DNA of 64,000 nt from Psammoneis japonica (Eukaryota). Where the stretch lies: positions 338,406 to 402,405 of the forward strand of contig QPGO01000056.1 in assembly GCA_008632985.1 (NCBI GenBank). The letters are read 5' to 3'. Under the pieces are notes generated by a model that was not told the DNA's origin, did no database searches, and saw nothing but the letters and a program-made list of their open reading frames with translations. The first letter of the stretch is position 1. Each line of letters opens with the position of its first letter. The translations under genes and the position numbers were made by a program. Shown here piece after piece: positions 9,232 to 59,169 of this stretch.

Positions 9232-9262
<31 letters not shown>

Positions 9263-23505: not shown

Positions 23506-24888
23506 GGTGGTGCTTGCAATGTTTTCCTTCACTGTGAATTGTGGTTGTGACGGGAACGAGTGGAGAGCACTTTCATGTTTCGCTCCTTTGTTTCGTGACG
23601 GTTTGACGCACACGGTTTGCAAGATGTCTATATTCCTTTTACGGTCCGAATACTTTTATATAATCGCTAATAATACCCAACTTGAATGTTTCCTCAAACC
23701 TGTTAAATCGTTCGAGCTGGCCTACGTCAGTCGTGGATAAACAAAAGTTTTTAAATCTATGATAATTGATATTCAACGTTGAATAAGGTATTAAAACAGC
23801 ACGACTTTTATCGACGATCAATACTACTTGTACCGTATGTACTGTAGTACTGTAGAGAAAAAATGCTGAAGCGGAATTGTGGACACCGCGACGACAAACT
23901 TGGGGGTATCCAAGAAGCTTCACAACCGCAATCGTGTCTGCGACTGTATTTCTGAGAGCCGTGGTCTGGACGCACGCTGCGTTCTAAATGTTCACAGAGC
24001 GAACTCTTGTGCATGCAGCACCTGGGTTCCTGGGTTGGGTGTCAAACTTGAAGCAATCACGTCTTGACTCCATTTCAGGAGTCAGCAACAAGTTGATGGA
24101 GATTTGGAGACGAGCATGTCTGTGACGAGGCTCCCCTCTCGCGGAAGATTTCGACGATATCATGGTTCATGCTTGTGACTTGCACATGGATGGATTCAAG
24201 GATGAATTGAAAGACAATCATGCTTAGTGTTACTGCGTAATGAATACAGATCAATTAATGGCACACGACTTACGGCTTATGGTAGTAAACTGGATTCAAG
24301 ACCACGCGAAACTCGAGGCATGTTGTGCGTATTTCCAATGGCGGAAAAGGCAATTGACAAGGTTTCGGGCATTCTACTCGACAAATTATTCACATTGCAG
24401 GAGGAAAAACTTCCTACCAGTAGAACATTCCGATGGAAGCTGTCTGAAGGATCCTTGTGCAAAGTTCTGCTGACGAAAACGCTACATGGTGTCGGCTGGG
24501 CTGTTGCTGTGCTCGGGCGTGTTGCAAATAATGTGCATTCCTAGAGGGTCCCTACAACTAGCATCTCGACAGACTTTATATAAAACGTGTAGTCAATTAT
24601 TGCATACTCTGCTATAATGCAGTCTTAACATTCTTGACTGAACGTCTCATAATATTCAAAACCTTCGGCGTGCGATTCCAATTACGCAGTACGCGAGTTC
24701 ATCTGCAAGCTACCCTCTACTAGAATGGACAAAAGTGAATAGAGCAGACAATGCATGGGGTTGCGCAGTGGTTTTCATCTTTAGAGTTACGCAAATCGTT
24801 TCCCGTCATGGGTCACTATAGTTGAGTTTAGTCTCTGCATCGACCATACCGCGTGAACGACGACGAAGAAATAGATTTGCTCCACCTC

Positions 24889-31800: not shown

Positions 31801-32800
31801 TCCAACAATGATGGCAATCATCTCTCCATGATGTTGATGGCTCCTTGTTTTGTGCCACAAAAGGCCCCCATCAGCAACAGCCAATGTGCTCCAAGGGCAA
31901 AATTTCTCAACCCATCACAGCACTTTTGCACACGGCTGCTCTCCGTTCTGAAAGGTTCTGCTCAGAATTGCTCCTGCACTGTTTGTGCCAAGCACAGCCT
32001 GCAATCTTCGAAAGACAGCGAGCACCAATGCAGCTTGTGATGTGATCTCTCATTCACCACTGCATGGCAGCCTTGTTGTTTTGTGGCAATGTTTGCTGTT
32101 GACTTGCTCGTGTCTTTGAGCATTCTTGGCCCTTGCAAAAAAACTCCACTTGGCTTTTTTCTTTGCTGCCCAAGCCAACAACACAATTTTTGATGTCTTT
32201 TGGCATTTTCTTTTTGTGGAGCTAGCTTGATCACAGCACAGCTGTCCATCTTGCAATTCTTTTCATGCACTGCACCCTTTCAGCATGTGGTTTGTCAGGG
32301 TTGCTGCCATCACCTTGTCACACTTCATCACTTTTGGCTCCTTTCTTGTTTGCTCAAATCTGCTGCCAATTGTCAGCCCCTCCAGTCTTTGCTTTGCATG
32401 GAATCTCTGGTGTGAGAAGTGAAAATTTCAGCTCTTGCATTGTCCATGGCTCCTGAGCTGCTGTGCTGGCTGAGTGGAGCCCGCACTCACTCTGAGGACT
32501 GCCACTTACACACACACACATGGGTTCACAACTGACTTCTCTGATTTTGGAAACTCCATCTGAGTGCTCAAACTTAAAAATTCATCTGGGTCATCTCCTG
32601 CCATGCTTGGCTCTCGTTTGAGTCCTTTTTTGTTGGCCAACTCACCCTTGCACCACTGAGGTGCCTTGCTTAATTTTCTTGGGTTCTGCCAACAATCTTT
32701 GTCAAGAAAGTCACCAGTGTGATGGTCTCTGTCTTACTCAGTCTTTTGCACCAAGCAGGAAGAAGGGTGGGTTGTTTCAGTTTCAACTCTGTCATTGTGC
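28900..32800. other. TpA/CpG-depleted block of decayed, internally repeated sequence
   Basis: Near absence of TA. Direct repeat about 31153-31300 vs 31515-31670, recurring aaggtc(c/t)ccaacaatga, and (TC)n at 31676-31696. Confidence 0.8.
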
Positions 32801-33841
32801 TACAACTGCGGCGCCCGGCAAATCGACATGGCGTAATGCTGTTGACAGTTCTGCCTTCTACAAGGATTGTCTTGCCTTGAGAACCATTCCGAATCATGGA
32901 CTCAACAGCATGGCAAAACACAAGAAGCTGGCATTCTTCTGGAACTTCAACGCGATGTCACGGAAGAGACGTTGGGTGCAATGCAACTTCTGAGTCTAAG
33001 GCATTTGCATCCATCTCAATTACACGACTTTTCTGGCGACATCGTGCATGGTGTCGTGAACAGCACTCTTGCTTCTTATCATCAATTCCCTCTACGAACC
33101 GAACCGGGTGTCGTCTATCAGCAGGTAAGTCGAGACCTTGTCTGTGCCGCGAACCTGGCAGACCTCAGTGAGTTGGTTGTGGCAGCCGTTGACAGGTACA
33201 GTGGGCTGAACAACATTGCAAGTACGCCGTAAAGAGCCTTCCAAACGCATTATAAGGAGGAGCCCCGCCTTGCTCGGACCGTACGCCGAATACACGGCGT
33301 GAACTAAAGAAAAGTCGGTTGCCCCAAACGCCGCCTTGTCGAGCACTCGGCGCAGCAAATCACCGCCTCGAACCAGGACAATGTGTTCTTGTTGATTCCC
33401 ACCAAATGCGGTCTCGGGAGTCTTTGCCTTTCACTCTAAGGAAATGCCGGGAAGCTCTTCTTCTTTCCCGTCCACAACTCTCTTGGCTTCCAAATGGCAG
33501 GAGGCACGAGTGTAATGTCCATGTCGGACCGAATCATTTCGATCCCGGAAAGACCCGTCAAGGTGGCAAACAAGAGCTGCATGTACTCCCACTTTTCCAA
33601 AAAGGTCTCTTTGCAAGTGAGCTTGACACCACTGTCAACGTGGTCTTGAATCAATCCTTGCAGCGGCGATCAGTGTTTTGTTTTTTATTTGAAGCACTGG
33701 CAATCTAACTGATGAAGCTTGGCTTGGCTTGCGGCTGAGTGTTGCAGGAGGGGATGCTCTGCGTCTTTTGCAATGCTGTTCACACGATGATCAAATGTCA
33801 TCTAAAACACGACGAGGATTATTATAAAACAAAAAACTAAA

Positions 33842-36689: not shown

Positions 36690-39525
36690 CAGTCTTAGTA
36701 CATAACGCGAATACAACCAACGAGATGCTTCTAGGCCTGTTACAACTACAATTGCAACAAGAGTGAGACCGTTTCTGTGGTTGCGGAGTTTCCCTCCGAC
36801 ACCACGTCACGGTTCATTCCGTCCGTCCGTCCACCACCTCAACTACCATAGCACAGTGGACAATCCCTGATACTCCGGATTTCACCCGGTCCCCTCGAAA
36901 TGTTCCTGGCAGACTTGGCAGGGACAATTCGACCTGGTGCTGACCCAGTGTCTCCCTAAAAACAATCGCAATCTCTGAGCATGGTGCAAACCCTCACTGG
37001 GGATGAAATCACCAGTCACAATCTTCGAGCATGGTGTGAACCCTCGCCAGGGAAGAAAATCACCACTGCTCCACGCATCGCACTCAATGTGTGAACTTGT
37101 CTAACAGAAAATTCCGTCTGATGGATGACATGACCTTCATGAACAAATCACTCAGGTTTGTCTCTGTTCCTTCCTTTGTGATTCTAACAATCCCCGCAGC
37201 AACAGCTTCGCAGTTGCGGCGATGCGTGGTGGACTCAGGAACAGAGCAGTTTTTCTTGCAGACGGCCTCGTTGTCACAAAAGACAATGGCAGGCCCTTCG
37301 ATCGTCACACCGAACATTCAAAGCTTGTGTCGCAAACCCTCTACAATCTCAATGGGATTCTTGAGTGCAACAAACTCAGCTCCAAATGTTCCAGCCTCCA
37401 CAGTGTTCTGAAGCTTCGAGTGCCACGTTTGACAGGCACCCGATTGACAAACATCAGACACCTGCATGGCTGCCACGATTGGCAACATTGCCAGCATGGT
37501 TGGCATCCACAAAACAATGTGTTGACACTGTGTTGCCTCAAGCAGGTGGTGCATTGGTTGGGATGGCTTCGTCATGCTGATCGCACTTCACGAATCACGA
37601 TTCATCTGTCTCAGGATGAGCCGGGTCAAACGCAATTTGGCACTTTGGAACCTGTTTAAGATGCACAAAGACATGCAGTGCCTGTTCCAGATGACCAATG
37701 CAAGGCAGTGCAAGGTGAGCAGACATCAACGAAACTTCCAAATGCATGTCCACTCCACCGAGTTCTGCGGCCCAAACCAACACACCAGTCAACTCTTGGC
37801 AGCAGTGCAGTCCTTCAGCGTCTAATTCGCCAGTCATGTCCAGCTTGGGTTCACACCCACTGCTCAGTGGAGTTGTCACCTCACCAGGCAGACATTTCCC
37901 TTCCTTGCCAAGTCTGTCCTCAACATTCTGAACAGTGGCCTTGCCGTGCTTCTCTGCAGACATGGCCCAACAGGCAGTCCCATTGGCCAAAGTCACATTG
38001 GAAAGTGCAGCACCGAGATGACAATCTGGCTCAGCTACCTTGTCACCCTTGAGCTTGAACTTGGACCTGATGCCATCCATCATCTTCATGGGTTCATGAC
38101 CAATCAACAGCATGTCATCAACACAAACAAGAGTGCATTTGTGGCACTCGAATCCATCGGGTTTCACCGCAGGTCTCATCCACACATCAGGATTGGCCTT
38201 GCTCGGTTTGCACCCCAGATCATAAAGCGTCTCTGCTGGAAATGCTCTGAACACTGCTCCGGAACTCTTTAATCTGCACAGGGCCCTGACCACAATCATG
38301 GCAGTGAGGTGGGTGTTCTGGATGTCACGTGCAAAAACTTGCATGTCATTGAGTGCTGCAAGCGTGAGTGCAATTCTTGCTGAATCCCGAGAGACAACAG
38401 AAGAGCAGGTGATGTGTGTGGGGGGTGCAGCAGTGTGGCCTCCTGCCACCATGCAAGCAACTTGATCTTTGCAATGGAATGCTTGCAAGTTCTCATGACA
38501 TGAGGGACCCACCAAGCAAATGCTGCCTCCTTTGAGATCCTGCGTTGAATGGCAAACTTGGCAACTTGCACAGGGAAACTCTCTTCAGCATCCTTCAAGT
38601 TGATCCATGTCATGCTTCCATCCTTCCATTGGAACAAAAGTTCCCATCCTTTGGTGGACTTGTGCCTCTTCCCAATGCCCTGCTCAGTCTTGAAGAATGC
38701 AGATTCCAGAACATCACCATTTCTGCGGCAATCCACCATCTCATCAAACAGGACATGCCAATTCCCATCCTCATTGATCTGTGCAAACATGTTTGTGGCA
38801 ATGGAGTTAGCTGAGAGTGCAGTGGGATGCCCATCAGGGCACTCAACCTCATGCATCCTTGTGTCAAGGATGGGATTGTCGTTGGCTGTTCCCGCTGGAA
38901 TGCAGTTGACATCTCTCAACCACTTTGTGACAGAAGCAAACTCGAGGCCATCATCATCTCTTGGAAATGCAACTTCCACATTGAGATGTCCCCAGTCAGC
39001 CACCTCCAGCAAGGCTTCCTTGTCCTTCTTGTCATTGTCATTGTGAGCCACCTCCTTTGAGGATGTGATGCAATCGCACTTGTTGAGGAATTCATCATTG
39101 CACCCAAGGCAGTCCTTCCAGTCTTTGGGGCTGATCTTGCAATCCTCGCAGTCAGGGAAGTCTTGCTCCCTCAACTGTCACTTGACCTCCTCCTCAAAAC
39201 TGTCGAACTTTGCCTTGTTGTCTTGTGCAGCAGCTTCTAGATTGGTGACCTGTTGAACTGAAGTCCTCAAAATGACACCACCTGTCTGTGTCAAAATGCA
39301 GTGTGACATGAGACTCCCTGTTCTGTGAGATGCACTGAGCAACCTGCCAAGTTTCTTGTTGCCAAGACCCGCGTTCTCTCTGTGCCAGACCCAATCATAA
39401 AATCCAAAGTCAAGACACTCCCAAACATCCACGGTCTCCCTGACAATGTTCTCCAGTGGCACTTGAATGATTGCACAATCAACCCAGGTGCACCTGCAGG
39501 AGAAAAACGCACAAGCCTTCACCGG
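36690..39525 (-). mobile_element. Ty1/Copia (diatom CoDi-like) retrotransposon, decayed 3' part of pol (RT, RNaseH) with probable PPT and 3' LTR starting near 36884
   Basis: ITCSSVVSRDS, DIQNTHL, RALCRLKSSG, LVCVDD, QNTVEAGTFGAEFVA, NLSDLFMK, KGWELLFQWKDGS. Purine tract gaggggaccggg precedes TGAAATCC. The LTR's far end is not resolved. Confidence 0.85.
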
Positions 39526-41566
39526 CGATCAAGACCCTCCTTTTGTCCCCCCACAGCTCAAAACTCAATGTTGAGCTTGAGCATGCTGACAAGCTTAAAG
39601 AACGATGTAGAAGCAGCTGAGATTGCAAGCAAATTCAAAGATTTGGCATCCAATTTCCCAGAAAAAGGTGCTGAAGTCATGCACAAGATGGCAGAATGAG
39701 AGCTCAAACACGCAAAAGCCGAAAGAGTTGCTGCATTCATCAATGCGTGCATTGACCTCTTTGAGTGCATGTGTTCCATTGCATCACACATGGAAAAGGA
39801 GAAACCAGGCATTCATGCAGGCACCTGGGAGTGCTCTGCCTGCTAAAATGTGCCAAGAAGCACATTGCTGACACGCTCTGCTTGACACACCTGCGAGTCA
39901 AGCAGGATGTTGTTGCTGATGAGATCATCTTGCAAATGAACTTGGTGACAGAAGACAACCCCGCCATCAACCAAGATGACATGGCAGAAAATCAATGTCC
40001 CCTTGCAGATGGCGAGACCAAGATGATCTACAAACATGTGGCCACATGGCTCCAATGCAAAAACACCTTTGAGGAAGTCACGATGACATTGCAAAACAAA
40101 ATCAAACGCAAGAACGAACTTTCCCGAGTGAGTGCCCAAGTCACAGCTAGATGGAATGCATGGAACAAAAAAGCTGCAGCAGAAGCAACATCAGCTGCAC
40201 TGGAAGATGAGCCAGCAGCAAGCCCAGCCATTCTTGAACAGCTGGTGGTCAAACAAATTGAGCTCAAAGTGCCCGTCACAGCCAAACAAACAGCCAAAAC
40301 GCTTGAACAGCAACAGTCGCAAAAGAAACAAAAAAACTGCATGGGCGACCAGAAAGCCCCACCAACAAAAAACAATGCCACAACAAAGGCAAGAAAAGGG
40401 CCACCACAAAAAAAAACGGGAAACAAGCCCCAATCCAAAACCACCCAGAATCAAGGAAAAGGAAAAGGCAACTGAAGCTCACAGTGCAAAGGCGGGCAAC
40501 AAGGCTCCAGAAACAAGACGAGGCATGTGCAGTGAAACTGGCACACCTCGCTGCCAAGGAGTCAATCAAAAACGCCAACCGTCAAGCCAACAAGTTTTGC
40601 CAGAGGATCCATGGGTTCATGCCAAACCCAAATAAAACCCCATGGCAGAATGCAGTGGATGCACTCGGCAACACCCCTGCAGTGCAATGCTTCAGTCAGC
40701 TAAACAACCTCACCATCCACAACCTCTGCACTGCTCTCAAGCCACCTCCTGGACTCGTTGCACTGCTCGGACTTAGTCACAAGTTTTGCATTCAACAACC
40801 GAAGCCTCTGCCCCATGACAAGCCTGGAATTGAGTGACTCTGTCACTCGATTTATCTCCATCACTTTGCAAACAACACAAACAACCTTCTGGAACTGTGG
40901 ATGATGGACTTCACAAACCGCATCAACAAACTCTGCCAGCGAGCAGCAGCACAATGCCCAAGGTGCAATTTGTCCCCACACCAACACCGACTCCTCCACC
41001 ACCTGAAAGAGGACAACCGTTGCATTGTCTGCATGAGTGACAAAAACCTGGGACCAGTTGTTTGTTGAACATGCAACCCACATGAAACAAGCCCTCCAAG
41101 ACCACTCAATTGACCAGCACAGCCACCAATGGCTGTCAACACCAGAGAAAAACAAACTCCTTGTCAAGCTCTGCTGAGCAAACACATTTCAAATGCAGCT
41201 TCAATCTGCTCCACCGCATCTCGCAATTCCATGTCACAATTGAGGTCAAAAAATCTCCATGGAAAACAAGACCAATCATCAGTTGTGTTGGAAGCTTTGA
41301 CAAGATTTTCTTGAACTGGTTGGACAAGAAAATGAAAGAGCTCCTTGCTCTTTCCCACTCCTGCATCTGCAATTCTCACCAAGTGCTCAAGGATCTGCGA
41401 GCACTGGAAAACCTGCCCAAGGATGTGAAGCTCTTTGCTGTCAATGCCATCAACATGCACTCCAATGTTGATGCAAACCATGCATTGGAAGTTTTTCAAG
41501 AACTGGTTTTCAGCCTGTCCCAACAAAATGCCAGCAGACTTCCCTGTGCAGTTTTTTCTTTCAGCC

Positions 41567-41945
41567 TGCAACATGCGTTGTCATGTACGTATTATATATG
41601 TATATCTATATATTAAATAAAAGTGTGTTTCAATCGTACGTCAATCGTGGGTTCGTACGAAGTACAGATCAGTCACACAGAAGTGATTGGATGTCGAGAA
41701 TCGCAAATGCGATCGTACGATGATGTTGACATCTTATGTGTCAATGTCAATCGTATCCGGACAATCTGTCGTCACGATCATATTCTCCGAAAGGCCTTTT
41801 GTCTGTAGGAGCAGTACAAAAGGTTTAGGCCATTGAGAATCCGTTCGGAGAAACCCAAAATGATTGAGTAGAAATGATTCTCATAATTTTCACTTTTTGA
41901 ACTTCATTCTACTTTCGTTTACACTCGTTCTTCGAGCATAGTGCA
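41567..41945 (+). repeat. 5' LTR
   Basis: 371/379 identical to the 3' LTR by manual alignment, TG...CA ends. Confidence 0.97.
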
Positions 41946-41981
41946 TTGTGTATACACACCACAGAAGGTAATAAGTTCAAG

Positions 41982-43136
41982 ATGAAGCTTTCACCTCATG
42001 CAACCAACGCCAAAACTTCGTCAAGGCAGGAGAAAATCGTCCCTCAACCGCTGGAATCGAACTCCGAGCCGAAGAGCCTCAAACCGAGCCAGTGCCTCAA
42101 GATGGAGCAACGTTTTCATCCCGAGAAGAAGGATAGCCGTACCTACACCATCAATGTTGAGCACTACAAGAAACAAGGTGTCCCCAAGTTCATCGAATTT
42201 CTCAAGAGCTACGATCAACTTCCAGTGGGCCAGAATGTCAGGAAGCAATCTGATGAGTTTCGTCTCATGCGTGTGTTACTCCAAGGAGACGCCCTGCGTG
42301 CTTTCGAGAATGCGGCAGCGAACCTTGAAGACGAATCTGCGGAAGGAAGCTTCGAGAAATGCCTGCAACATCTCACGAGGCATGTGTTTCCCAAGAATGC
42401 CCTTTCGGTGCAGAAACGTCATTTGCGTCGTGATCTCAAGAAGCCGGAGTCCATGAAAGTACGCGAAATTGCTGCTTGGGTCCAGGAAGTCAACGAAGAC
42501 CTCAAGTTCTATCCTCCCTTTGGGAAGGAACAGAAGATCAAGGACGACGAGCTCAAGGACATCCTCTTCAACCTTGCACCTCGAAAGTGGCAGCGTCAGT
42601 CGACCGTCCAGGGTTTCGAAATTTTGAAACATGCCTGTGACGAGCTGGTTGAGTTCTTGGAGCGCCTAGAGGTCGCAGAAGACACATTTGATGGCATTCA
42701 TGCCAAGGCTGATGGCAGTGGCGGCACTGCATCAAAAGCCAAGAGTGGTTCCCAACGTGGTTCCAAAAATGGTCACCAACATGGTGCCGAAAAATCTCAG
42801 TCCGAGAAGTGGTGCATTTCATGCGAGAAATCCACTCATAACACGGACAAGTGCTGGTCGATCAAAAGACTTGCGAAAGAACGCTGTGGGAACTATGAAC
42901 CCGACCCGAAACGGCGCCGTTCAAATGGCAATCGCACGTGGTCTCGTCGCGACAACGACAACGCCACTCGCAAAGAAGAGTTGAATGCCATGGCGATCCA
43001 AGCAGTTCAAAAAATGCTCAAAGCGAGTTCTTCGAACAATGACAAAAAACACAAGAGCAAAGATTGTGATTCTGATGCCCTTGACGAGGAAAATTGTCAG
43101 TTTGAAAAAATGACGCGCAGTGATTCCGAGGAATGA
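41982..43136 (+). CDS. gag: Gag with CCHC zinc knuckle
   Basis: Open frame with CISCEKSTHNTDKC (C-x2-C-x4-H-x4-C). Confidence 0.88.
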   Translation: MKLSPHATNAKTSSRQEKIVPQPLESNSEPKSLKPSQCLKMEQRFHPEKKDSRTYTINVEHYKKQGVPKFIEFLKSYDQLPVGQNVRKQSDEFRLMRVLLQGDALRAFENAAANLEDESAEGSFEKCLQHLTRHVFPKNALSVQKRHLRRDLKKPESMKVREIAAWVQEVNEDLKFYPPFGKEQKIKDDELKDILFNLAPRKWQRQSTVQGFEILKHACDELVEFLERLEVAEDTFDGIHAKADGSGGTASKAKSGSQRGSKNGHQHGAEKSQSEKWCISCEKSTHNTDKCWSIKRLAKERCGNYEPDPKRRRSNGNRTWSRRDNDNATRKEELNAMAIQAVQKMLKASSSNNDKKHKSKDCDSDALDEENCQFEKMTRSDSEE

Positions 43137-46100
43137 CTTGCACCGCAAGAGGAGTCTTGCGCTCTGCTGGACATTAGGAAGCCCAGGAAAAGGGCCAAAG
43201 TAATTCACACTAGTCCAGTGGTCGTCGCCTGCATGAACACTTCATTGGGCAAGGCGAAAAATAAGCCTCTGCGCGTTCTCCTCGATGGCGGAACATTGTC
43301 AACCATAATTTTGCGCAAATTCACGCGGAAACTCAGAACAAAAGCATCCGCCACCAAACTCTGGGAAACCAAAGGAGGGCTCTTCACGACTGACAGTCGA
43401 TGTAAGATCCAATTCTCCTCACCCGAATTTGACAAACACAAGATGATTGAAACAACGGCATGTGTTGACAACTCCCCTTCTTCTTCGAGTCGTTATGACA
43501 TGATCATGGGATGCGACTTAATGTCAAGTCTTGGGATGGTGTTGGACTTCTCGAATGAAGAAATTAAGTGGGAAGATGCAACTGCTCCTGTGAAGAATGT
43601 TGATGCACTCTTCGATGCCGATGTTTTTAAGTTGATTGCCGATCACATTGAGGAATCTCATGCAGTGATTGGTCTCAATGACAGGGTCAATCGGATCCTT
43701 GACTCAGACTGTCATGCTGCAAACCTCAATAATGTGACCGCAGCAGCTGCTCATCTAACTCCTGAAGAGCAGAAGCAGCTGAACTTCCTCTTAAAAAGAT
43801 TTGAAAACCTTTTCGATGGTTCTCCAGGCAAATGGACCGGGAAACCGGTGGATTTAAAGTTGAAATCGGGCGTGAGTCCGCATCATGCCAAACCATTTCC
43901 CGTGCCACAAGCCTTGGAGGCGACTGCTCGTAAGGAGGTTGAAAGACTGTGCAAGTTGAAAGTCTCAAGAAAAACAAATTGTTCTGAATGGGCGGCTCCA
44001 ACCTTTGTTCAACCCAAGAAAAATGGCAGAGTTCGGTTCTCATCCGACTTTCGAGAGCCAAACAAGAGGTTAATTCGTACTCCGTTTCCTCTGCCCAACA
44101 TTCAGGACATGCTACAGAAGCTTGAAGGCTTCATGCATGCAACGTCCCTGGATTTAAACATGGGATGCTGTCACATCGAATTGACGCCGCGTGCACGTCG
44201 CTTGTGCACGATCGTCATGCCTTGGGGCAAATGTGAGTGCTGTAGACTCCCCATGGGAATTTGTGGAGCTCCAGATATTTTCCAAGAGCACATGAGTGAG
44301 CTCATGGCAGGTCTGGAGTTCGTCAGAACTTGTGTTGACGACACATTGTGTCTTGCAAAAAGTGATTTTCAAGACCACCTCAAGAAGCTTGAAACGGTGT
44401 TCTTACGCCTAGAACAAGCCGGATTGAAGGTCAACGCCGAGAAGTCCTTTTTCGCTAAAACCGAAGTAGACTATCTAGGCTTTCATGTCACCCGCAAGGG
44501 CATCAGCCCGATTCCAAAAAAAGCAGAAGCGATTTGCGCGATCGCAACTCCTAAAACTCGCAAGGAATTGCGACGCTTTATCGGTATGATCAACTATTAT
44601 CGAGACATGTGGCCTCGACGATCTCATGTTTTAGCTCCTTTAGCCAAACTCACTTCTACCCAAGTAAAGTGGCAATGGACCGAAACAGAACAAAAAGCCT
44701 TCGAAAATATGAAGCGCATCATCTCCAAAGATATACTATTATCATACCCGAATTTTAATATACCCTTTGAGATATATACCGATGCTAGTAAATCTCAATT
44801 GGGGGCGGTTATTACTCAGAAAAACCGACCAATTGCCTTCTACAGCCGCAAGCTGAATGGAGCGCAGACGCGTTATACTACAACGGAAAAAGAGCTATTG
44901 TCCATAGTGGAGACGTTAAAAGAGTTCCGAAATATACTGTTTGGCCAACAGATAAATATATATACGGATCACAAAAATCTCACACACAAAAATTTCACAA
45001 CGGACAGAGTCATGCGTTGGCGTCTAATAATAGAAGAATACAGTCCCGAAATAATATACCTTGAGGGCAAGGCAAATATTGTCGCAGACGCGATTAGCCG
45101 ACTTACTATGAAGAAAATAGAACCTATGGAAACCCTCAGCACAGAAGAGCTAGCTGAAAAGGTCCTACCAAAATCCTACGACAATGTCTTCCGTTAAATT
45201 ACAAAGTTCTTGATTATGAACAAAAACGGGATAAAGACATTCTCTCCCAATTGTCAAATAAGACGTTTCATACGAAGACTTTTCGTGGAGGCGAGCGAGA
45301 CCGGTTGCTCATATGTCATAAGGATAAAATTGTCGTCCCGAGGACGTTACAAAAGGCAGTGATAGATTGGTATCATACATACCTTCTTCACCCTGGCATA
45401 AATCGAACAGAAGAAACAATCTCACAACACCTATGGTGGTCCACCTTACGTGAAGACATACGAAAATACGTGTCGAGATGTGAGACGTGCCAAAAATTCA
45501 AAAAGAAACACAAGAAATATGGACATTTACCTCCTAAGTGCGCAGAATCCGTACCATGGGAACGACTATGTGTGGACCTTATTGGGCCATACAAAATACG
45601 TCGTAAGGGAAAGAAAAAACCCCTAGTCCTGAAATGTTTAACTATGATCGATCCAGCAACCGGATGGTTTGAAGTTGTGGAAATCCCAAATAAGGAGTCC
45701 ATAACTGTAGCTGGACTATTAGAACGAACATGGCTAAGTAGATATCCTTGGCCATCGTTAATTACATATGACCGTGGAAGTGAGTTCATCGGACACCAAT
45801 TTAGAGAAATGGTGCAAGATGATTATGGCATTAAAGTCAAGCCTATAACTACACGAAATCCACAAGCAAACGCAATTATTGAACGCGTACATCAAGTACT
45901 GGGGAACATGCTCCGTACATTTGATTTGCAACATACACCTCTAGATACTGAGGATCCTTTCGCTGGAATACTATCAGCAGTAGCATTTGCGGTACGTTCT
46001 ACGTATCATACCACTACGCAAGCTACACCAGGACAACTAGTCTTCAATAGAGACATGATATTTAACGTCCAACATGTCGCGGACTGGAAATTAATCCAGC

Positions 46101-46336
46101 AGCGAAAACAAGAAATCATAAATAAAAATAACGCTCGAGAGAATGCTCGACGTACTCCTTACACGTACAGAGTAGGAGAAAAGATACTACTCGAGAAAGA
46201 CTCGCAAAAATTAGAACAGCCCTATGTTGGACCGTATGTAATAACAACGGTACATACTAATGGCACAGTACAGATCAAACGCGGTAACGTTATTGACACT
46301 GTCAATATTCGTCGAATAATACCGTTTAACGACTGA
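43137..46336 (+). pseudogene. pol: Pol (protease, RT, RNaseH, integrase), RT inactivated, frameshift near 45190
   Basis: VLLDGG protease, LDLNMGCCH / RLPMG / CVDD RT, YTDAS..EKELL..YTDH RNaseH, HHCC plus D,D,E integrase (VDLIGP, YDRGSEF, IERVH). Confidence 0.93.
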
Positions 46337-46362
46337 CTCTAATGTGCAATTAGGGAGGCGAA

Positions 46363-46741
46363 TGCAATATGCGTTGTCATGTACGTATTATATATGTATA
46401 TCTATATATTAAATAAAAGTATATTTCAATCGTACGTCAATCGTGGGTTCGTACGAAGTACAGATCAGTCACACAGAAGTGATTGCATGTCGAGAATCGC
46501 AAATGCGATCGTACGATGATGTTGACATCTTATGTGTCAATATCAATCGTATCCGGACAATCTGTCGTCACGATCATATTCTCCGAAAGGCCTTTTGTCT
46601 GTAGGAGCAGTACAAAAGGTTTAGGCTATTGAGAATCCGTTCGGAGAAACCCAAAATGATTGAGCAGAAATAATTCTCATAATTTTCACTTTTTGAACTT
46701 CATTCTACTTTCGTTTACACTCGTTCTTCGAGCATAGTGCA
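46363..46741 (+). repeat. 3' LTR
   Basis: Matches the 5' LTR and follows the PPT. Confidence 0.97.
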
Positions 46742-49700
46742 TTCCCTCTCAATCGTCATGACACAGAACAAACATCCTCCAGTTTGATGACATGCATTGG
46801 CTGCAAACCTGCAGAACCACCATGGGCACTGGCACAGCATGCATGTGCACAACGCTGTGCAAGGCCCTTCATGAATGCCAAGTGCTGCAAACCTGCTTCG
46901 CCACCAACCTGCAACACTGTGGCTGGTTCATCAACAACATCTTGGGGACATGGACCAGAAACTCTGACTCAATGTGGACAGAATTCAAAACAGAAATGAA
47001 CAACTCTGGCCCCCTTGAATGGGAAACTTTGCTGCTCTCCAATGCAGCCATGTTCCAGGATTTAGAAATCCAAATAGGAGCCAATGGCAGGATCATCACT
47101 CGTGTGCATCAAAAGCCCGTGAATCTCTTTCTGTGCATGCCACCAACATCAGCTCATGCACCCGGAGTGCTGAAGAGTGTCACATGTGGAAATTTGCGAT
47201 GGTTCTGGCTGCAAAATTCAGATGCACATGACTTTGTAAAAGTTGCAAAAAACTTTGCAGACCATCTCGCTGACCAAGGACACGATTGGGACATGCTGCG
47301 TGAGCCATTTGTGGAAGCCGCCAACCATCTCAACAACCCCTGTCAGCACTCCCGCTCCAACAACACCGCAGACCCAAGCTCTGCCCTGTTCTTCCACAGT
47401 GAATTTCACCCCCGTGGGGCACCTCATGCCTCTGTTTGACGGGCCTGTGAAGACACATTGGATGGGTGCAATGGTTTCAAGCATTTTGTGCTTGCTTGCT
47501 TGTGACCTCAAAACTTGAGAGACGCTTCAATGCAAACTCAAATGCAAGAACCAGAGGGCAAGCGTGCATCCAACTACATCAAGCAACTGGAGCTGGAGCT
47601 CTGAGTTGGTGACTCCATCGTGATGACACACCTCCGGCAAAAAACTCTGGGCTGCCTTCCATTCCTGTGGTGCTTCGGCTTGTGCCCATTGGAGTTTTTT
47701 TTGGGGTTGCACCAAACCCAAACCCCATTTTTTACATGCAGTTGATCTGTTCTTTTCATTCTTTAGCAGGCATTCAAAACACACCATTGAGAACGCCAAT
47801 GCCCACTTTTTCTCCACTGGAGTTTTGGGCCAAAGACATGCGTGCTTCGTGCACATTGGCACTTTCAATGGTCGCATCTGAGCTGTGACAGCAACAACCA
47901 TTAAAAACAGCCGATGTTGATCTTTTTGGCTCATGAGAAAACATGTCAACCATGCTGATGAAGCAAAAGCAAAAGCTCACATCATTGAGCTTTGCAGGTT
48001 TGGCAAGACCAACCCAAAGTCTTGTCAGTGCCAAAGGCACTCTCTGCACATTCAAGAACCCCAGCAGCAAAATGAGAGCAGAGGCCGGAAAACCCAAGTG
48101 GTTCGTGCATGTTCAACAGAATCGGTGATCTCATCTTGCGGATTGCTTGAGGCCAGTGGGCAAAAAATGTGCTGCAGGGCCCGAACGGCACTCACTCGTG
48201 CAGCCTCCTGCTGCCCCCATGTTGTGTGTCTTGCACCTCCCACACCTCTCATTGGGCTCTTAAAATCTTTAGAGTTAAAATCATGAATGTGTTGTTGGTG
48301 TGGAATGGACAAGTGGCTTTTAAAACTGTGGTGTCAGACGCCGCTGATGAGGGTGGGATCAAGAGCATCGCTTTCTCGGAATGTGGTGCTTTGTGTTGTC
48401 CCACAATGAGAATGTTGGTGAGCAATTGCGTGCAACAGAGGTCAACTTCCTTGATGTTCCTGCTCAAATCTGCCCTCTGCCAGATGCACATTCACCAACC
48501 TGGCCCAAGTTCCAAAAATTGGATTCTCTCAAGTCTCTCGAGCAATGCTGGTGATTTTGGCCAAACACCCATTTGCACTTGTTTGTCACAGCCCTGCTTC
48601 CAGCTGCCACTTTCAAGGTTCAGAGGCAGGTGTCAAACTCAAAGCACTGTGGCACTCTGGCTGTCTTCTCTATGATGCAAAACAGTGTGCACATGTGTGT
48701 TGTGGGCTGGAACTTTTTTCAATTGCTGAGGTGGTGCAAACAGCCTTTGGAAGTTTGTTGGGCCTTGTTCTGGCAAATGAATCTTGAATCTTGCCTTGTG
48801 ACTGGCATCTCTGCAGCTGATGATTGGCCAGAAAATGTCAAAGAGCTGCATGTTCATCAATTGACCCAATGACAATGATGAGTTGACAGTTTGCTGCTGG
48901 GGGTGGGGGTGTTGCTGCACCAAGCATCTGGACTTTCCCACATGGCCAGAGTCTCAACTGAGTGCTGGCACCAGCAGAGGGTGACAGAATGCCAAAAGGC
49001 AACAAGGACAATGCCATGGCTGACTCCCCAAGCACCAGGGCTGTGATGATGTGAGCACTGGCGAAAGAGAATGAGAGGTCATCACCTGCACTCTGTCTGT
49101 TTGTCACACGATGGGTGGACTGGCACCCTCCCCTGATCTGCAATGTCGAAATGTAGAAAACAATGCAGGTCAACCAAAACAACAGGGGTCATGCATGAAA
49201 ATTGATTGGATGACAAAACAAAGTGTCCAGGCTCAACTCACAATTGCAAAGAAACCACACAAAGCAATGACATCTCCAAAAGACTCCAATGGCTGCAGGG
49301 TGCATGTGCTGATCCATTCAAAAAAATCAAAAGCAGCTTCAAACAAGTCTTGTGCAAAAGTTGAGTCTCAATCCAAAGACCAAAGAATGGCTCTGTCAAT
49401 CAACAAATGATTGAAGGCAAAGGGGCATTCTGGTGAGCCACAATGTTGCTGAATCTCATCCAGCAAAATGGGGCAGGATGGAAATTCACCATGGTGTGTG
49501 GTGTGGCAAAAATGAGGTGGAAGCAACCCGCTGGACAAAGCAGCACCTCGGTCACATTTTGCTTTGCCCCCAAAAAACACAATGGACAGAAAAAAATGCA
49601 TCACAAAAGTTTTTGGCATTTGGAAGAACATGTGCGCGCGGCATCTGAGGATGGCAGGATGTGCAAATCTTGGCCACCAAATGTGGCATCTTGAGAGAAT

Positions 49701-49977
49701 CTTGAATGCTCAACAGCCTTGCATGCTCCCACTGTGCTGCAGGGATCCCTCCCCTGTTCACAAAACACAGGGTCATTGTTGGCAACAGTTGACAGGTCCA
49801 GAACACCAGGAAAAATGCTGTTTGACACCACAGCGGTCCTGTCAGTGAACAAAAAGGTGTTGTGGCAGAAGGTGACAAGTTTTGGTGACCTTCTTTCAGG
49901 GGCATCCAACTTCTTCCATTGAACCTGTTGGCTTCCTCTTCACTGCATTTGACCCTTCCCTGATCAGAAAGTGCAAG

Positions 49978-50424
49978 TGCAACACACAGCTGCCAACGAG
50001 AGTCAATGCATCACGGCGACGTGTCACAGCCTTCAAATGTCACAAAGGGCGTGACAAAAATGACCTTTTGTCTGCATGCATGCTGCACCATGAATTCACA
50101 GCGGAGTGGTTCATCGCAACCATCAGGCAGGAGGCCAGGGGTTCGAAACCCTGAGTGGGAGTTGTCTGCAGCAACGTTGATCACTGTCGAACGCGTGAAA
50201 CTCTGTGCAGTTCTGTGTGTTCCTTCGCACGCACCCACGCTGTTCCGCCAAAACCGTGCAGTGTCAGCACACGTCAGTAAAGAGCCGCATGGATGCGTGA
50301 TGCATGGGGAGGAGTGCAATGTGCAGCCACCAATGAGAGCCAATGTGTCACAGCGACGTGTCACAGCCTTTAAATGTCACAAAGGGCATGACAAAAACAA
50401 CCTTTTGTCTGCACGCATGCTGCA
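49978..50424 (+). mobile_element. TRIM (miniature LTR element, 447 bp) with 110-bp LTRs
   Basis: LTRs at 49978-50087 and 50315-50424 (TG..CA), PPT ggggaggag at 50306-50314, 4-bp TSD CAAG on both sides. Confidence 0.9.
50092..50160 (+). ncRNA. tRNA-like module (A box, D-arm, B box/T-arm) inside the TRIM; not a complete tRNA
   Basis: CAGCGGAGTGGTT (A-box-like), GCGG/TCGC D-stem, CAGGGGTTCGAAACCCTG T-arm. The anticodon arm is short and unpaired. Confidence 0.6.
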
Positions 50425-53400
50425 CAAGGTCGCCATCAGCAGTGGAGGCCAACAGCAGGCCAACAGCAGGGTTCTTGAAGGGGCAAGATGGCAGGGCAGG
50501 AGGCAACGACATGCAGAGCAAGATCAACACCACTGGAGAAAACCACACACTGGCAATGTTGCTCTGCACTCTGCATCCCAGGAAAGCTCACCAGACAAAT
50601 GGGGTGCGACAACCTGAGGGGACTCAATGTTGAAAGAAGGTGGATGCTTGGCAGGTCCACAGTCTGCCAAGGTTGCCTGGGCTCTTTAAATCTTTCCCTG
50701 GCATGTTTTAAAGCATGTTGGAAGGTTTCTAAAGCCACACCAGGCCAGCTGCATTGTGGCGGTCTTGTGGCTCCTGGAGTTGTGAGCCTTTGCTTTTGCC
50801 AAACTGAGCTTGGTTTTTTGTCATTGTCCACCCTGTCTCCAATGGCTGGCGCCCCAGTGGCCCCAAATTTGGGACCTTTTCTCTGTCTTTCAACTCTCTT
50901 GTGACCCAGCTTTCAACTCATCCACCAGGGACTCACAGCTGAAAATGTTCAGACACACTGCTTCCCACTGATTTTTGACATTTTTCAGGGTGCACGCGTG
51001 CACACAGAATGGGTGTTGCTGGGTGCAGCAATGAGTCCTCAGGGTGTTGCTGGGTGCAGCAATGAGTCCTCAAGCAATGCTGAAAGGGCAAACTCTTCCA
51101 ATGTGGCATGTGAATGTTGTCCACTTTAGATCTGTGTAAAAAATGTTTTGGAGTGCAACAACAGATGGGCAAACATTGCCACACAAAATCATGACAATCA
51201 GGTTGGCTGCAGCACAGCAAACATTTTGTTTGACATTCCAGTCAACAAAGGTCATCATTTTTGGAAATCTCAGTTGATGCCATCACAGCAAGCATCACAT
51301 CAAGCTTTGTTCTGCCAGCAGCAGTGGCAGTGGCAGATTGTTGAGTTCAAAAGCTGTCTGTTTTGGTTGGCTTTTGCAAGATTTCAATGTGAAGCATTTG
51401 TCCTGTCATTTTGTGGTGTTCACCCTGTGCATGGCAACAAGCTCTTGCACAGATTTGTGCTGGAGCTTGTGTGCATCCTGACAAACTCATGAGCCCTTGT
51501 TGCCACCTGCACTCCTCACCAAAGCTTCGCTGCCTGCTGCTCTTGCTTTGGCAGCACTTCCCCTCTTGCAGCTTTGGCACGGGTCTCTCATGCACCAATG
51601 TGCACTCAGTTGCTCTCCTCCCTGCTGCACTTGTCCAATTCTTTAACTTGCAAGGCTTTGACAAATTGCCAATGCATGAGATTTGTGCAATGTGGGTCAT
51701 CAATGACCACAAGCTGTGAATTGGAGCAGCTTTGAACTTGTTTGTGCATTCCCTGGTCATCTGCCACATGTCAGCCCACTGCTTCTCCCCACACTTCCTC
51801 AGCTTTTTTTGTTCATGAGGATCAGGGTTGGGGTCAGTGCCAGGGCCAGGGCCGCATTGTCCCAAACTGTTTCTGAACAAGCTGGTCATCACTGCCCTCA
51901 TTGGGGCCAACCAGCTGATGAAAAGCTGAAAAATCTGGCTCAACAGTGGCTCCCTTGAGCTTGCAGACTTTCATGAGGATGCGCCCATTTCAGGCTTTCT
52001 GCAACATGTCACAAAATCTGGCTGCACTTGCTGAGGCTGGTGCCTGCCAGATGCCAGATGCAGCCATGGGCCGCAGCTGCTCCAGCACCTGGTTGCTCAA
52101 TTCAAGAACACAACAATGTGACAAGTTCATGGCTCAGCTCAGAAAATTGGTTGAGTGCTCCAGAGATCATTTTTTGTTGTTTGCAAAGCAATTGTGGGGC
52201 ACTTGGGCACTGCAGCCATGCAACAAAAGACATCTTTCATGACCCCAAGATTGCCTCATCTGTTGCTCATGTTGTTGCATGCAACAATGTTGGCATTGCA
52301 ACAATCTAAAATCACCAACAGCAGGGCACCCAAAACTTGTGGGAACACAAGTTCAATGGGTCACAGCAGCTCAGAGAGACTGCCCACTCTGGAAGAGCCA
52401 GTGCAGAGTGCCCACGCATTTTGCTTGCCATGGGTCAAAAACCAACACACTGAGGATCATCTGCCTTTGAGCTTCTGCTCATTTTGCCCTGTGCAGTGTC
52501 CAGGGGGGCGGGCACCAGCAGGTCATGCGCACCTGTCAGGGAAGGCAAAAACAGAAACCACAGATGGGTGTGAGCCACAAGGCTGGCAGTTGAGGTTGGG
52601 GCTCAATGCTCCAACATGGGAACCCTTGTTGCTGTCATCAACATGCCCAGACCTCTCCAATGACAGCAGCACACCATTTTTTTTGGCAATCTTGACAGCA
52701 GCCAATGCAGGCTGTGCATTGCAGCTGGCTTCTAAAGCTCCAAAACCTCCACCTCACTTGACAAAGTGGTCATGCAGTGGCCACGCTTGTGCCCTCTTTT
52801 CTCTTGCCCCACATCTCTCTCAAAAGGTCAGAAAAACCTTGCATGTGGCAGACAATGCAGTGCAAAGCAATGGCATGAGGGAGGCAGTTGAGTGAACAAA
52901 CACATGTTTCTCATGTCAAAAAAGAGCACTTTGCAACAAGTGGGTGGAGAGCTGTTGCCTGCCACCTGCCATTGCCAGCTGTTTTTTGATGGCTTGCATG
53001 CATGAGCTGGTTGCAGCAGTGCTGCACTGACTCCTCTTTTTGTCTCACCCTCACATGCCCTGTGCATCTTTGTGTGAAAATGCCAGCTGAAAAGTCAACG
53101 AAGTTGTGCAGCACTTTGCCACACAGACAAGTGCAAAAATGAAAAAGTGTTGAGCCTGCAAGTTTGAGCCCAGCCCCTTTCCAAACAAACCAAAATGAGC
53201 AAATGCCAAACATGGCACACCAGCAAATGAAAAACTTTTGAACAAACAAAAAGCAAAGACATGCTGCTCCCTGGGGATCTGCTGTGTTTTTCAAGCTGCT
53301 TGTTTGGTGCAGAATGGGTGTTGCAATGTGTGGCACAGAATTTGTGCTGCAATGTGCAGCAATGAGCTCCCAAGTGATGTTGGTGCCACAAACCCTGCCA

Positions 53401-54329
53401 TTGCAGCATGCAAATGCTGTCCATTTTGGACATCTGTGTCAAAACAAAAAAGTTTTGGCATGCAAAAAATTTTGCCATCAACACAGCACAAGAGTTTCTC
53501 AAAGATCACAACAACTGGCTCAGCTGCAGGATCAGAGGCCACAATGTGGTGGTTTCCACTTTCCTCTGCAAATTTTTTGACGTGCATTGTCAACATTGTC
53601 AACAAGCAAAATTTGAAAACTGCCGGCAACAGTGCTCAACAGATTGCAGTTGTTTTTTGTGTTTCATCTGATGTCTCATTGGCTTTTCTTGCACAAGCTT
53701 CAATCAAATGCGTGCAATGTTCAACTCAATTGGAGTTGACATCTGTGTTTTGTGATGCACAGTTTGGTTTCCTTTTGATGATCATCAACCTGAACTTGGT
53801 TTCCACTTTGGTCCTCCTCAACTCACGTGCATGTGTTTGCACGTGTGCAGTCTGCTTCATGCACACACATGACCCACCCTCCATTTAAATTCCTCTTCAT
53901 GCTTCGCAGATTTTTGCGGCCCCTTGGTGCACCGTGTTTTCAGTGTTTTTTCACATGCACAATTTTCTGCACACTTCACAATGGTGCACCCTCTCCCCAA
54001 AAATCAAAAAGCAAGAGCATGTGCTGTTGTGATTGACGTGGATTCTATGTTTGGTCACAAATCTGCAAATCGACAACCGGCCATGGTGGTGAAAGACTTC
54101 ACCCCATTGGCCGATGACAGCAGCTCAATGCATGGTGAAACCTGCTGTCCTTCTGGTTGGTCAAGACAGGTTTTGATTTGGGAACAGCTTGAGTTTTGTG
54201 ATCATGAGTGTGCTGTCATGAATCTGCTGCATCCAGAATGCTGAGCTGCTGGTGTGTTGTTGTGTGCATGGTTGTTGTGTGCATGCACGTCACAAACTTG
54301 CTTTTCTGCAGCATTGGGACAATCGCGCG

Positions 54330-54915
54330 TGTCAGAGTTTTGCATCCAGAATCATCACAAGTCACCACAAATGACACTCTTCAAACAAAAGGCATGCACA
54401 AAAAGAGGTTCATTGGTTTTTGATGCACTCGCTGACAGTGCATCTGTCTTCTCCAATTTCTGTGTCCAGATCAAGAAAGACTGCAGGTGGTGCTTGTTCC
54501 TGCAGCTCTCAGAATCACACGCATGAAAAGTTCTTTGCCACATGTGACACTCCTCAAAAAAGGCATGCACAAAAGAGCTTCATTGGTTTTTGATGCATTC
54601 ACTTGTGTCACGTCCATCTTCTCCAATTTTTGTCCAGATCCAGAAAGACTGCAGAGGCAGAGAGTGGGGGGGCAACCCATTGGAGGTTGCCTGAGTTGTT
54701 GAGCTCATTTTTAAAGGCTTCCCAAGTCTCTCTGCTGTTTCTGGTCCATGCTCTAAATGTGCCATTGATGAACCATTCACAGCACAGGTGTGGGGTGAAC
54801 TCAGTCATTGCCATGTGACTTTGTCGTTTGTGCTGCACCTTGCACAGTGTGGTGCACATGCAGGCAATGCTTGTTCCCACAGCCATTCCAGCAAGTGCAT
54901 TCTGTGGCACTCAAA
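54330..54915 (-). mobile_element. Second Penelope-like RT fragment with an internal duplication of about 170 bp
   Basis: MAVGTSIACMCTTLCK..WFING..WTRNS..W..FKNELNNSG.L.W aligns to ORF 46792..47439. About 54345-54486 is repeated at about 54508-54654. Confidence 0.8.
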
Positions 54916-55018
54916 ATGTTTTTTGCTTGCTCACATGCTTTCTTTCTGTGTTTTCTTTGAGTTGCAGGGGTGGAGCTGGGTGCTCAACGTCTTGCACCTT
55001 GCACCGGTGTCCACATTG

Positions 55019-55510
55019 CTCCAGAATCAGTGGCACCAGATGAACCGATGCACCGGCAAGTGTGTGCTGCCATTCATGCCAGCTCATCTGTGTTGTGCTC
55101 TCACAATGTGCTCTGTGCTTTTTGGCAACAAACAAGGTGGATCACAGCAACAGCACTTCTGCTGCAAACTCACCTGCTCCAGAATCAGCAGCAACAGATG
55201 CACTGGCAAGTCCATGTTGCCGTTCCTGTGGGTCATGTTGGTTCATCTGTGCCACACTCTCACAACATGTTCCACTCTTTTTGGCAATGAATGAGGTGGA
55301 ATGGAGCAGCGGCACTTCAAATCATGGAACAGCAGCTCCTGCTACAAACTCACCTGTTCCAGAATCAGTGGTGCTGGATGCACCGGCAAGTCCATGTTGC
55401 CATTCATGTTGGTGGTGTTGGTTCATCCACGCTGCACTCTCACAACACATTTTGCACTTTTTTGGCAATGAACAAGGAAGGTGGCTGCCAGCAGCGGCAC
55501 TTCAAGAAAG
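55019..55510. repeat. Three tandem units of about 160-180 bp
   Basis: tccagaatcag..gatgcac(c/t)ggcaagt..ctctcacaa..tttttggcaa recurs at about 55020, 55178 and 55358. Confidence 0.85.
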
Positions 55511-58500: not shown

Positions 58501-59169
58501 CAGGGTTGGAAGAACCTTGCACAGCAGATGTCACAATGTTGGGCGACAATGCAAAACAGGCAGCAAAAAAAAGCACATTTCTCATGTCAAAAGGAGCCCT
58601 CCGTGACAAGCAGGTGGAGCTGCTGCTGTGCCATCTGCCACTGTGTTGACTCATCCATGCCAGTGGTGTGGAGTGTGGATGAGCAGGTTGCAACTGCACT
58701 GGAGGCTTCTTTCTTGACAACCATCATCACACACCAAGCCCAAACCATGCCCTGTGCACTCTTGCATGAAAGTGCCAGTTGAAAAGTCAACAAAGTTGTG
58801 CTGCACTTTGCAGCACAGTGTGCCAGAGAAACAAGGGCAGTCAATTTGAGATTGAATCTTGTCAACCCCCCCACCCCTGTCACAACAACCCCCAAGAGAG
58901 TGTCAATGCTCAAGCACACAAACAAAAACTTTCATGTTTCCTGCGCATTTTTTTTGTGCTTCCTGCATGTTTTTTGGGTGCCGGTCTGAGACACATCTCT
59001 GCAGAGCTTTGCACCTCAGCCAGCCAAAAGTCTGCAAGGCACCAGCATCAACCAGTGGTCATTGTGTTAAAATTGATTGTCGGCCCCACCAAAAGCAAAG
59101 AAAAAAAGCAATGAAACATGAAATGTGCCCATGTGTTGCTTGTTGCATGTGCGTGCTGTGCTGCGGTGG

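Follow-up and report, generated by a model that had tools for sequence, protein, structure and literature searches.

A TpA-erasing mutation signature in repeats of the diatom Psammoneis japonica and its probable youngest footprint between the sister LTRs of a retrotransposon

Fungal repeat-induced point mutation (RIP) changes C to T at CpA and thereby makes TpA, and DNA that has undergone it is recognised by a TpA/ApT index above ~0.89 and a (CpA+TpG)/(ApC+GpT) index below ~1.03. A process that erases TpA has been described in mutation-accumulation lines of Bigelowiella natans, where two integrated viral regions gathered 231 mutations, 230 of them A>G or T>C and all of these on TpA, at a rate of ~6e-7 per site per generation (Mettrop et al., bioRxiv 10.64898/2026.01.13.699255). 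The same preprint counts 124 TpA-depleted clusters in the 95-Mb genome, enriched for reverse transcriptase (RT) and DDE domains, gives a Rho of 0.45 for the nucleocytoplasmic large DNA virus (NCLDV) region, and puts forward adenine deamination as a hypothesis (10.64898/2026.01.13.699255). In the full-text literature, this preprint was the only report of TpA-directed hypermutation found and none concerned diatoms, most subscription journals lying outside the coverage. Here we report a TpA-erasing signature in a 64-kb stretch of the diatom Psammoneis japonica (GenBank assembly GCA_008632985.1, contig QPGO01000056.1, forward strand, positions 338,406 to 402,405; hereafter the window, in whose numbering all positions are given), where it is found in old repeat DNA and in the differences between the two long terminal repeats (LTRs) of a young 5.2-kb Ty3/gypsy retrotransposon at 41567-46743. 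The kind of signature itself is known from that single 2026 preprint; its occurrence in a diatom and on transposons is new.

The features by which the B. natans process is described, viz., an A>G/T>C bias, its placement on TpA, its restriction to repeats and an enrichment of CpA and TpG, are all found in the window. As far as the account in the preprint goes, the likeness includes TpA>TpG and TpA>CpA changes on both strands, confined to foreign or repeat-derived DNA, and a TpA depletion that goes along with CpA and TpG enrichment; in that genome, the depleted sequences have an excess of RT and DDE domains. The host in that account is a chlorarachniophyte and here a diatom (Stramenopila), and the target there is a giant-virus or virophage insert, whereas here transposons including an LTR pair are affected. 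Depletion is near-total in the diatom, with an observed/expected ratio (o/e) of 0.05 over 54% of the window as against clusters numbering 124 in 95 Mb and the Rho of 0.45. Loss of CpG accompanies that of TpA here, unlike in the B. natans account, and a preference for T-A-pyrimidine, hinted at by the TpA that survive in the window, is not mentioned in the Results or Discussion of the preprint. The B. natans mutations were measured de novo, whereas the signature described here comes from sequence comparison.

Other known processes resemble the one proposed here to a lesser or greater degree. Like RIP, it involves DNA-level, repeat-directed and dinucleotide-specific transitions on both strands that ruin reading frames and inflate divergence. 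However, RIP makes TpA from CpA, lowers GC and creates stops in filamentous fungi, whereas the process in this diatom destroys TpA, keeps or raises GC and removes TAA and TAG, and the RIP indices of the repeats in the window are reversed (TpA/ApT 0.02-0.1; (CpA+TpG)/(ApC+GpT) ~2), lying outside both RIP thresholds. Decay of CpG through 5-methylcytosine, which likewise leaves TG/CA, has affected the same old repeats (CpG o/e 0.26), but it lags behind the TA loss, as in a tract of the element where TA o/e is 0.25 and CpG o/e 0.88. The deaminase-type hypermutation of selfish elements by APOBEC3 and ADAR likewise has a neighbour-base preference, but these enzymes act before integration, on complementary DNA (cDNA) or RNA and on one strand, whereas here integrated DNA is affected on both strands and sister LTRs diverge.

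Sister LTRs and TpA-stripped repeats

The element is bounded by a direct repeat of 381 nt, comprising the 5' LTR (41567-41947) and the 3' LTR (46363-46743), both on the forward strand and both counted with a shared terminal TT; counted as TG..CA, the LTR measures 379 nt and ends at 46741, where a sequence-only reading made earlier had also placed the end. That reading had reported eight differences between the LTRs, seven of them opposing TpA to TpG or CpA, and gap-free alignment gives exactly these (8/381 sites; seven transitions and one G/C transversion). Written as 5' LTR/3' LTR, CA faces TA at 41572/46368 and 41831/46627 (C/T), TG faces TA at 41625/46421, 41627/46423, 41746/46542 and 41876/46672 (G/A), and TA faces CA at 41869/46665 (T/C). 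The TG/CA state is thereby found at six sites in the 5' LTR and one in the 3' LTR, which retain 27 and 32 TA respectively, and A/G as well as T/C differences occur on the same strand. The transversion at 41690/46486 (G/C) is derived in the 3' LTR, the 5' LTR and a related LTR elsewhere in the window both having G. None of the 22 CpG per LTR differs between the sisters. As the earlier reading held, the differences must be post-integration, and the transitions are confined to one dinucleotide class on both strands.

Positions at which a transition can interconvert TA and TG/CA make up 28.3% of the LTR, so that finding all seven transitions in this class has p = 1.5e-4. An empirical control was drawn from 80 related metagenome loci with 29 terminal-repeat pairs, some of these pairs being possibly assembly overlaps and not sisters; the TA-type class accounts for 63 of their 465 substitutions (13.5%), and the probability of at least 7 of 8 is 5.9e-6. 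Expressed as a rate, there are 7 TA-type changes per 132 nt of TA dinucleotides and 1 change per 630 nt elsewhere in the LTRs, a ~33-fold excess per nucleotide that upholds the claim of mutation far above background. Both LTRs also keep rare private letters, at 41688 and at the pair 41770/46566, where ~15%, 3% and 0% of the family read-contig depth agrees, and they are therefore genuine sisters, not a mosaic brought to the majority sequence of the family by polishing. The family-variant table behind such depths was made from the contigs of a public sequencing run and lists 40 of its 1552 variable places; the eight differing LTR sites lie outside the listed places. In one of the control loci (L049, terminal repeats 1-428/5371-5798), TA faces CA at 10 of 37 substitutions, which may hint at the same process in another organism.

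Dinucleotides counted over successive 1-kb intervals delimit stripped repeat zones at 1001-4000, 11001-17000, 29001-33000, 37001-41566 and 46744-64000, amounting to 34.8 kb or 54% of the window. The o/e in these zones is 0.05 for TpA, 0.26 for CpG, 1.84 for TpG and 1.72 for CpA, as against 0.52 for TpA and 0.96 for CpG in the gene zones (~23 kb), and TG and CA are near-equal in stripped DNA. Tyr codons, counted in six frames, make up 0.08% in stripped DNA and 1.94% in the gene zones, and the six-frame stop codons in stripped DNA are TAA 0.18%, TAG 0.09% and TGA 2.38%. The element is sharply set off from this DNA: bins of 250 nt hold 0-2 TA in the flanks up to both LTR edges and 14-17 in the LTRs, which confirms the view that it is far less mutated than its surroundings. 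Contig depth identifies the flanks as low-copy repeats. The upstream flank (37001-41566) is CpG-low and ends sharply at the LTR; the downstream flank with further repeats (46744-64000) holds 48 TA in 17.3 kb and is also stripped of CpG. Contigs of the public run, which possibly comes from the source sample of the assembly, differ from the stripped flanks by 1-6 letters per 420-990 nt, so that, with this reservation as to the sample, the stripping is not a quirk of the assembly.

Loss of TA seems to precede or outrun CpG decay, because the region 1001-4000 is TA-stripped (o/e 0.02-0.12) with CpG still at 0.71-0.84, as compared to 0.05-0.3 in other stripped DNA, and because seven TA changes but not one at CpG separate the sister LTRs. 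Stripped DNA still contains 119 TA, which are unevenly spread over sequence contexts, with TTAA 5.9-fold and CTAA 2.9-fold enriched relative to the gene zones and CTAG also frequent, while ATAC (0), ATAT (0.12-fold) and GTAC (0.10-fold) are nearly gone. This suggests that T-A-pyrimidine would be a good substrate and T-A-A a poor one, a preference that fits 11 of 16 polarised events. An inverted repeat of 1.1 kb with 83% identity (5100-6186/19140-20206; TA o/e 0.35-0.5) brackets a gene-bearing stretch. Only 15 of the 92 substitutions between its arms are of the TA type, and thus not every repeat is targeted. None of the related metagenome loci is stripped (TA o/e 0.56-1.18), the search pattern having demanded an intact Tyr-Tyr motif and so excluded stripped relatives beforehand, and this result does not speak for an absence of the process in other organisms.

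Direction of the changes and rival explanations

The polarity of the changes is seen most clearly in old repeats and in coding regions. Among 2013 columns aligned from eleven old repeat pairs, each situated entirely in stripped DNA, adjacent double differences number 110; 46 of them set CA opposite TG, the next type numbering seven. An opposition of CA to TG requires either a TA ancestor resolved independently in each copy or a TA intermediate with an A>G step, and models of cytosine deamination do not yield it. For the coding part, the pol of the element was aligned to 31 relatives and its integrase to 26, with columns taken as conserved at a threshold of at least 80%. In the protease-RT part (43137-44500), the element deviates at 30 of 187 conserved columns, 22 of the deviations being single-step and 8 multi-step. 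TA>TG (8) and TA>CA (6) account for 14 of the 22 single-step deviations and other transitions for 2, and there is no TA gain and no CpG-type change among the 30. The ten conserved Tyr columns of this part read Tyr in 2, Cys in 6 and His in 2 cases, so that 8 of 10 Tyr are lost, including that of the Y-I-D-D box. For example, the relatives' consensus LDLNMGYYHIEL, WGKYEYQRLPMG and FVRAYIDD corresponds to LDLNMGCCHIEL, WGKCECCRLPMG and FVRTCVDD in the element. Relatives with full coverage retain 24-28 of 28 Tyr columns. The conserved Tyr are retained in the element from 44472 on (6/6) and in the integrase (8/8), i.e., in 14 of 14 columns.

A third line of evidence comes from the abundant copies of the family. 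Among the listed places, 45312, 45624, 45759, 45768 and 45878 have TA in the window and CA or TG in 84-93% of the family depth; the protein relatives back the window clearly at 45312, 45624 and 45768 (Ile, Leu and Tyr/Phe), weakly at the other two, and never back the majority. The abundant copies are therefore mutated, and a majority consensus polarises wrongly. Over all variable places of the family, A>G (375) and T>C (385) outnumber G>A (284) and C>T (283). The TA-loss changes at 45312-45878 include non-conservative ones (Ile>Thr, Leu>Pro and Tyr>Cys) that are shared by most of the family depth, and it seems that mutated copies kept amplifying, presumably mobilised by intact ones. At 45170-45180, the window has two neighbouring TA for which a consensus built from the loose ends of other copies gives CG and TG, respectively; CG opposite TA is beyond a single A>G step. 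Taken together, these three independent lines strongly support TA as the ancestral state, and TG/CA as the product, in this genome and in the coding part of the element.

The sequence-only reading had TpA lost and not gained, which stands for the genome and for the coding part of the element; at the seven LTR sites we infer the direction and do not read it directly, and there loss of TA after integration is likely. It had also held that a family consensus with TG/CA at these sites would count against loss. The related LTR (188-670, reverse strand), which has 80-83% identity and ~160 nt of internal sequence, belongs to a second copy running off the window and is the one further LTR copy within it. 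It has TG/CA at four of the seven sites, like the sister without TA, matching the 5' LTR at 41625, 41627 and 41831 and the 3' LTR at 41869/46665. The rule is, however, unsafe, the family majority being itself mutated. Several further points weigh against loss at the LTR sites. In another subfamily, the consensus of loose ends reads C at 41869 and G at 41876, and since outgroup LTRs carry TG/CA, plain parsimony would read six G>A/C>T changes in the 3' LTR. With only seven sites, the context preference has no power as a test of polarity (Fisher p = 0.57; likelihood ratio ~3), and at two of the three sites with an apparent strand preference the less-preferred strand changed. In the RNase H-integrase part, Tyr stands in place of two conserved His, a change of the CA>TA type for which we offer no explanation beyond ordinary substitution. 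As for the outgroup, the related LTR is itself stripped, with 12 TA against 27-32 in the LTRs of the element, and it has TG/CA at 12 places where both of these have TA, the reverse being seen at one; we therefore argue, without a measurement at the LTR sites themselves, that it is a biased outgroup for them. Two sites are more than two-valued: 41746/46542 has TG in the 5' LTR, TA in the 3' LTR and CA in the related LTR, and 41831-2/46627-8 has CA in the 5' LTR and TA in the 3' LTR, with G as the second base in 96% of the depth over the 3' LTR.

A rival reading is RIP-like or other cytosine deamination at CpA/TpG, by which TG/CA would be ancestral and the 3' LTR would have gained six TA and the 5' LTR one. 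Outgroup LTR copies with TG/CA at 4-5 sites, the TA-rich 3' half of the element (o/e 0.97) and the two His that read Tyr speak for it, but we consider it very unlikely. The window has no region of TA excess and its extremes point the opposite way, and the host is a diatom and not a fungus. The RNase H-integrase part has 40 CAA, CAG or TGG among 623 codons and not one stop, where ~4.9 new stops are expected under a gain model (P = 0.007), so that the DNA adjoining the 3' LTR gives no sign of TA gain. The TA o/e of the integrase, 0.96, ranks 56 of 64 among relatives and lies within their range (0.51-1.13), and conserved Tyr and Cys as well as the zinc-finger and DDE residues are intact in this part of the element. 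The CA-TG discordances and the three-state sites would in any case require an A>G step at TA. With none of the 22 CpG per LTR changed, methyl-cytosine decay is spoken against as well, and CpG decay is ruled out as the cause of the LTR differences.

Ectopic gene conversion, by which part of the 5' LTR would have been overwritten from a more TA-stripped LTR copy, is very unlikely. The family is abundant, with a summed contig depth of 6000-27600 as against ~60 for single-copy flanks, other copies have the same TG/CA states as the 5' LTR, and the tract 41975-44400 resembles an imported block. However, the six sites are spread over LTR positions 6-310 and yet the 5' LTR has no non-TA difference from its sister, the sole transversion is derived in the 3' LTR, and the 5' LTR shares private minority letters with the 3' LTR at 41688 and 41770; a conversion donor must therefore have been a near-identical sister copy. 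Highly improbable is also an artefact, whether from paralogous reads polished into one LTR or from miscalls of modified bases in heterochromatin. High-copy repeats are error-prone, and the public run has an unrecorded library type and is possibly from the same sample as the assembly. Against this, both LTRs hold on to letters from which 85-100% of the family depth departs, so that there was no polishing toward the majority, the stripped flanks recur almost letter for letter in k-mer contigs that reach 315 kb and have a depth of ~60, a TA-normal young element is sharply bounded inside stripped DNA, and the changes form coherent Tyr>Cys/His replacements. The chance that editing before integration, ADAR-like on RNA or APOBEC-like on cDNA, produced the signature is very slight indeed, even though retroelements are classic targets of editing and, according to the B. 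natans preprint, ADAR prefers U before the edited A (10.64898/2026.01.13.699255). Editing of a shared template cannot make the LTRs differ. Both LTRs are copied from one template at integration, and the asymmetry of the sisters rules out RNA or cDNA editing as the cause of their differences. Both strands are hit, the stripped zones cover all old repeat DNA including tandem repeats and a weak Mutator-like match, and the integrase end, which stays single-stranded longest in reverse transcription, is the least affected.

The proposed process and the TA-poor tract

We propose that the LTR differences are the youngest visible footprint of a TpA-erasing hypermutation that saturates old repeats of this genome, a reading that we hold to be likely. 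A young Ty3/gypsy element would have inserted into older repeat DNA, where a process changes TpA to TpG or CpA, i.e., A>G after T on either strand of the palindromic TA. One activity on duplex or transiently opened DNA could give both products, and such a single either-strand activity matches the near-equal TG and CA of stripped DNA and the 8:6 split in the RT part. Its target would be integrated repeated DNA, with host genes spared, and it would be near-complete in old repeats while the hits so far in the young element may number ~6 among the 33 TA of the 5' LTR and 1 among the 33 of the 3' LTR. Action on integrated DNA is indicated because sister LTRs diverge and because the stripped zones span all old repeats and not one family. 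The simplest chemistry would be adenine deamination in a T-A context of DNA, as proposed for B. natans. The signature itself, its polarity in coding and old-repeat DNA and its restriction to repeats are shown here, whereas the polarity at the LTR sites, the enzyme and the way in which targets are chosen are inferred. For recent activity, the LTR pair is all the evidence that the window offers.

Within the element, a tract at 41975-44400 has 0-4 TA per 100 nt, as against 4-14 on either side, with a TA o/e of 0.25 and a CpG o/e of 0.88 in the tract and a TA o/e of 0.97 in the 3' half. In 100-nt counts, the drop starts at ~41975, the start of gag just after the LTR and leader, and recovers at ~44400; ~80% of the conserved Tyr are lost within the tract, and all are kept beyond it. 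Fixed differences from the family majority that are not of the TA type number 12 in the tract and 4 in the 3' half (P = 0.09, among the listed places). At 43219-20, 43461-2 and 44535-6, likewise among the listed places, the window has TG and ~88-93% of the family depth CA, and the tract and the majority lineage were therefore stripped independently. We rank inheritance of the tract, or its import by recombination, slightly above stripping in place, because its edges are sharp, the 5' edge lying at the obligatory strand transfer of reverse transcription, and because of its 12 non-TA fixed differences against 4. One extra template switch between stripped and intact RNA would give exactly such a mosaic. 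Stripping in place, which would agree with the sequence-only reading of an element caught mid-process, is a little less probable. A more far-reaching scheme is put forward tentatively, as we think it rather less probable than not. It would comprise a TpA-directed DNA adenine-deamination defence in diatoms that acts in bounded tracts on integrated retrotransposons, with the 2.4-kb gag-RT tract stripped in place and the LTRs grazed, a T-A-pyrimidine preference, mutated copies mobilised by intact ones, and an ancient origin as a defence across the whole Stramenopila-Alveolata-Rhizaria (SAR) group.

If the proposed hypermutation is real, the presence of the same signature in a diatom, over more than half of a 64-kb window, would make the process neither rare nor lineage-specific, and a sister-LTR pair could serve as an internal clock for it. 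Ages from LTR divergence would be inflated in such genomes, as the sequence-only reading had expected, by ~8-fold here (8/381 as against 1/381). A majority-rule repeat consensus would rebuild the mutated and not the ancestral state, the loss of TAA and TAG would yield long false open reading frames (ORFs), and profile searches would miss transposons in which Tyr has turned into Cys or His. The family numbers more than 100 copies, and its young members offer a concrete system for finding the enzyme and the targeting signal.

Element anatomy and neighbouring sequence

The assignment to Ty3/gypsy is based on LTR ends TG..CA, a polypurine tract and the order RT - RNase H - integrase, all of which are found; the purine-rich tract (46352-46362) lies directly 5' of the 3' LTR. 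A presumed gag frame on the forward strand (41979-43136; 411 codons) ends in TGA, is in frame with pol and lies wholly within the TA-poor tract, and it has no Pfam match. The pol frame (43137-45197, forward) follows after this single in-frame TGA and encodes a protease region, RT (RVT_1) and RNase H. The integrase (45158-46336, forward), with an H2C2 zinc finger and an rve core, is in a different frame, reached by one frameshift near 45170, and is stop-free. The pol matches more than 1000 database proteins at E<=1e-40, the closest having 64% identity; same-family protein copies are absent from the protein search results, where a length filter likely excludes short repeat contigs. By contig depth the family amounts to roughly 100-150 copy equivalents, the LTR to more, and an exact 21-nt LTR motif has no match in the metagenome, viral and prokaryote-genome collections. 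The element lacks a recognisable target-site duplication, the flanks reading ..CAGCC|TG and CATT|CCCTC without matching 4-6 nt. Element-free contigs join 41566 to 46823 and not to 46744, so that at the paralogous empty sites the ~80 nt 3' of the 3' LTR are either missing or have diverged too far.

The sequence-only reading had named the interrupted repeat a Penelope element, for which we find no confirmation: at E<=1, the flanking ORFs have no fitting Pfam family, and neither RVT_1 nor GIY-YIG has a match in eight of them at that threshold, which is weak evidence in DNA so heavily mutated. The ORF at 37595-38584 gives a weak RVT_2 hint (E 0.038), and a degenerate RT in the stripped flank (59797-60732) has H-I-D-D as its catalytic box. 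The Mutator-like match in the stripped zones, where tandem repeats are also found, has an E-value of 3.7e-4 and falls below the Pfam cut-off. Long ORFs without a Pfam match, such as 2877-4523 and 59495-60595, are common in these zones because TAA and TAG are nearly absent, and they are likely false genes.

The host genes of the window are long and uninterrupted. Two of them lie on the reverse strand in gene zones, viz., a CDC20/Fizzy WD40 gene (21982-23655) and a PH-START gene (8332-10713). The closest named relatives of the CDC20 gene are from diatoms (Cylindrotheca, Nitzschia, Fistulifera and others) at ~40-47% identity, and the PH-START protein has 58 relatives, the named ones being from Seminavis and Pseudo-nitzschia. 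Across both genes, identity to relatives ranges from 32 to 47%.

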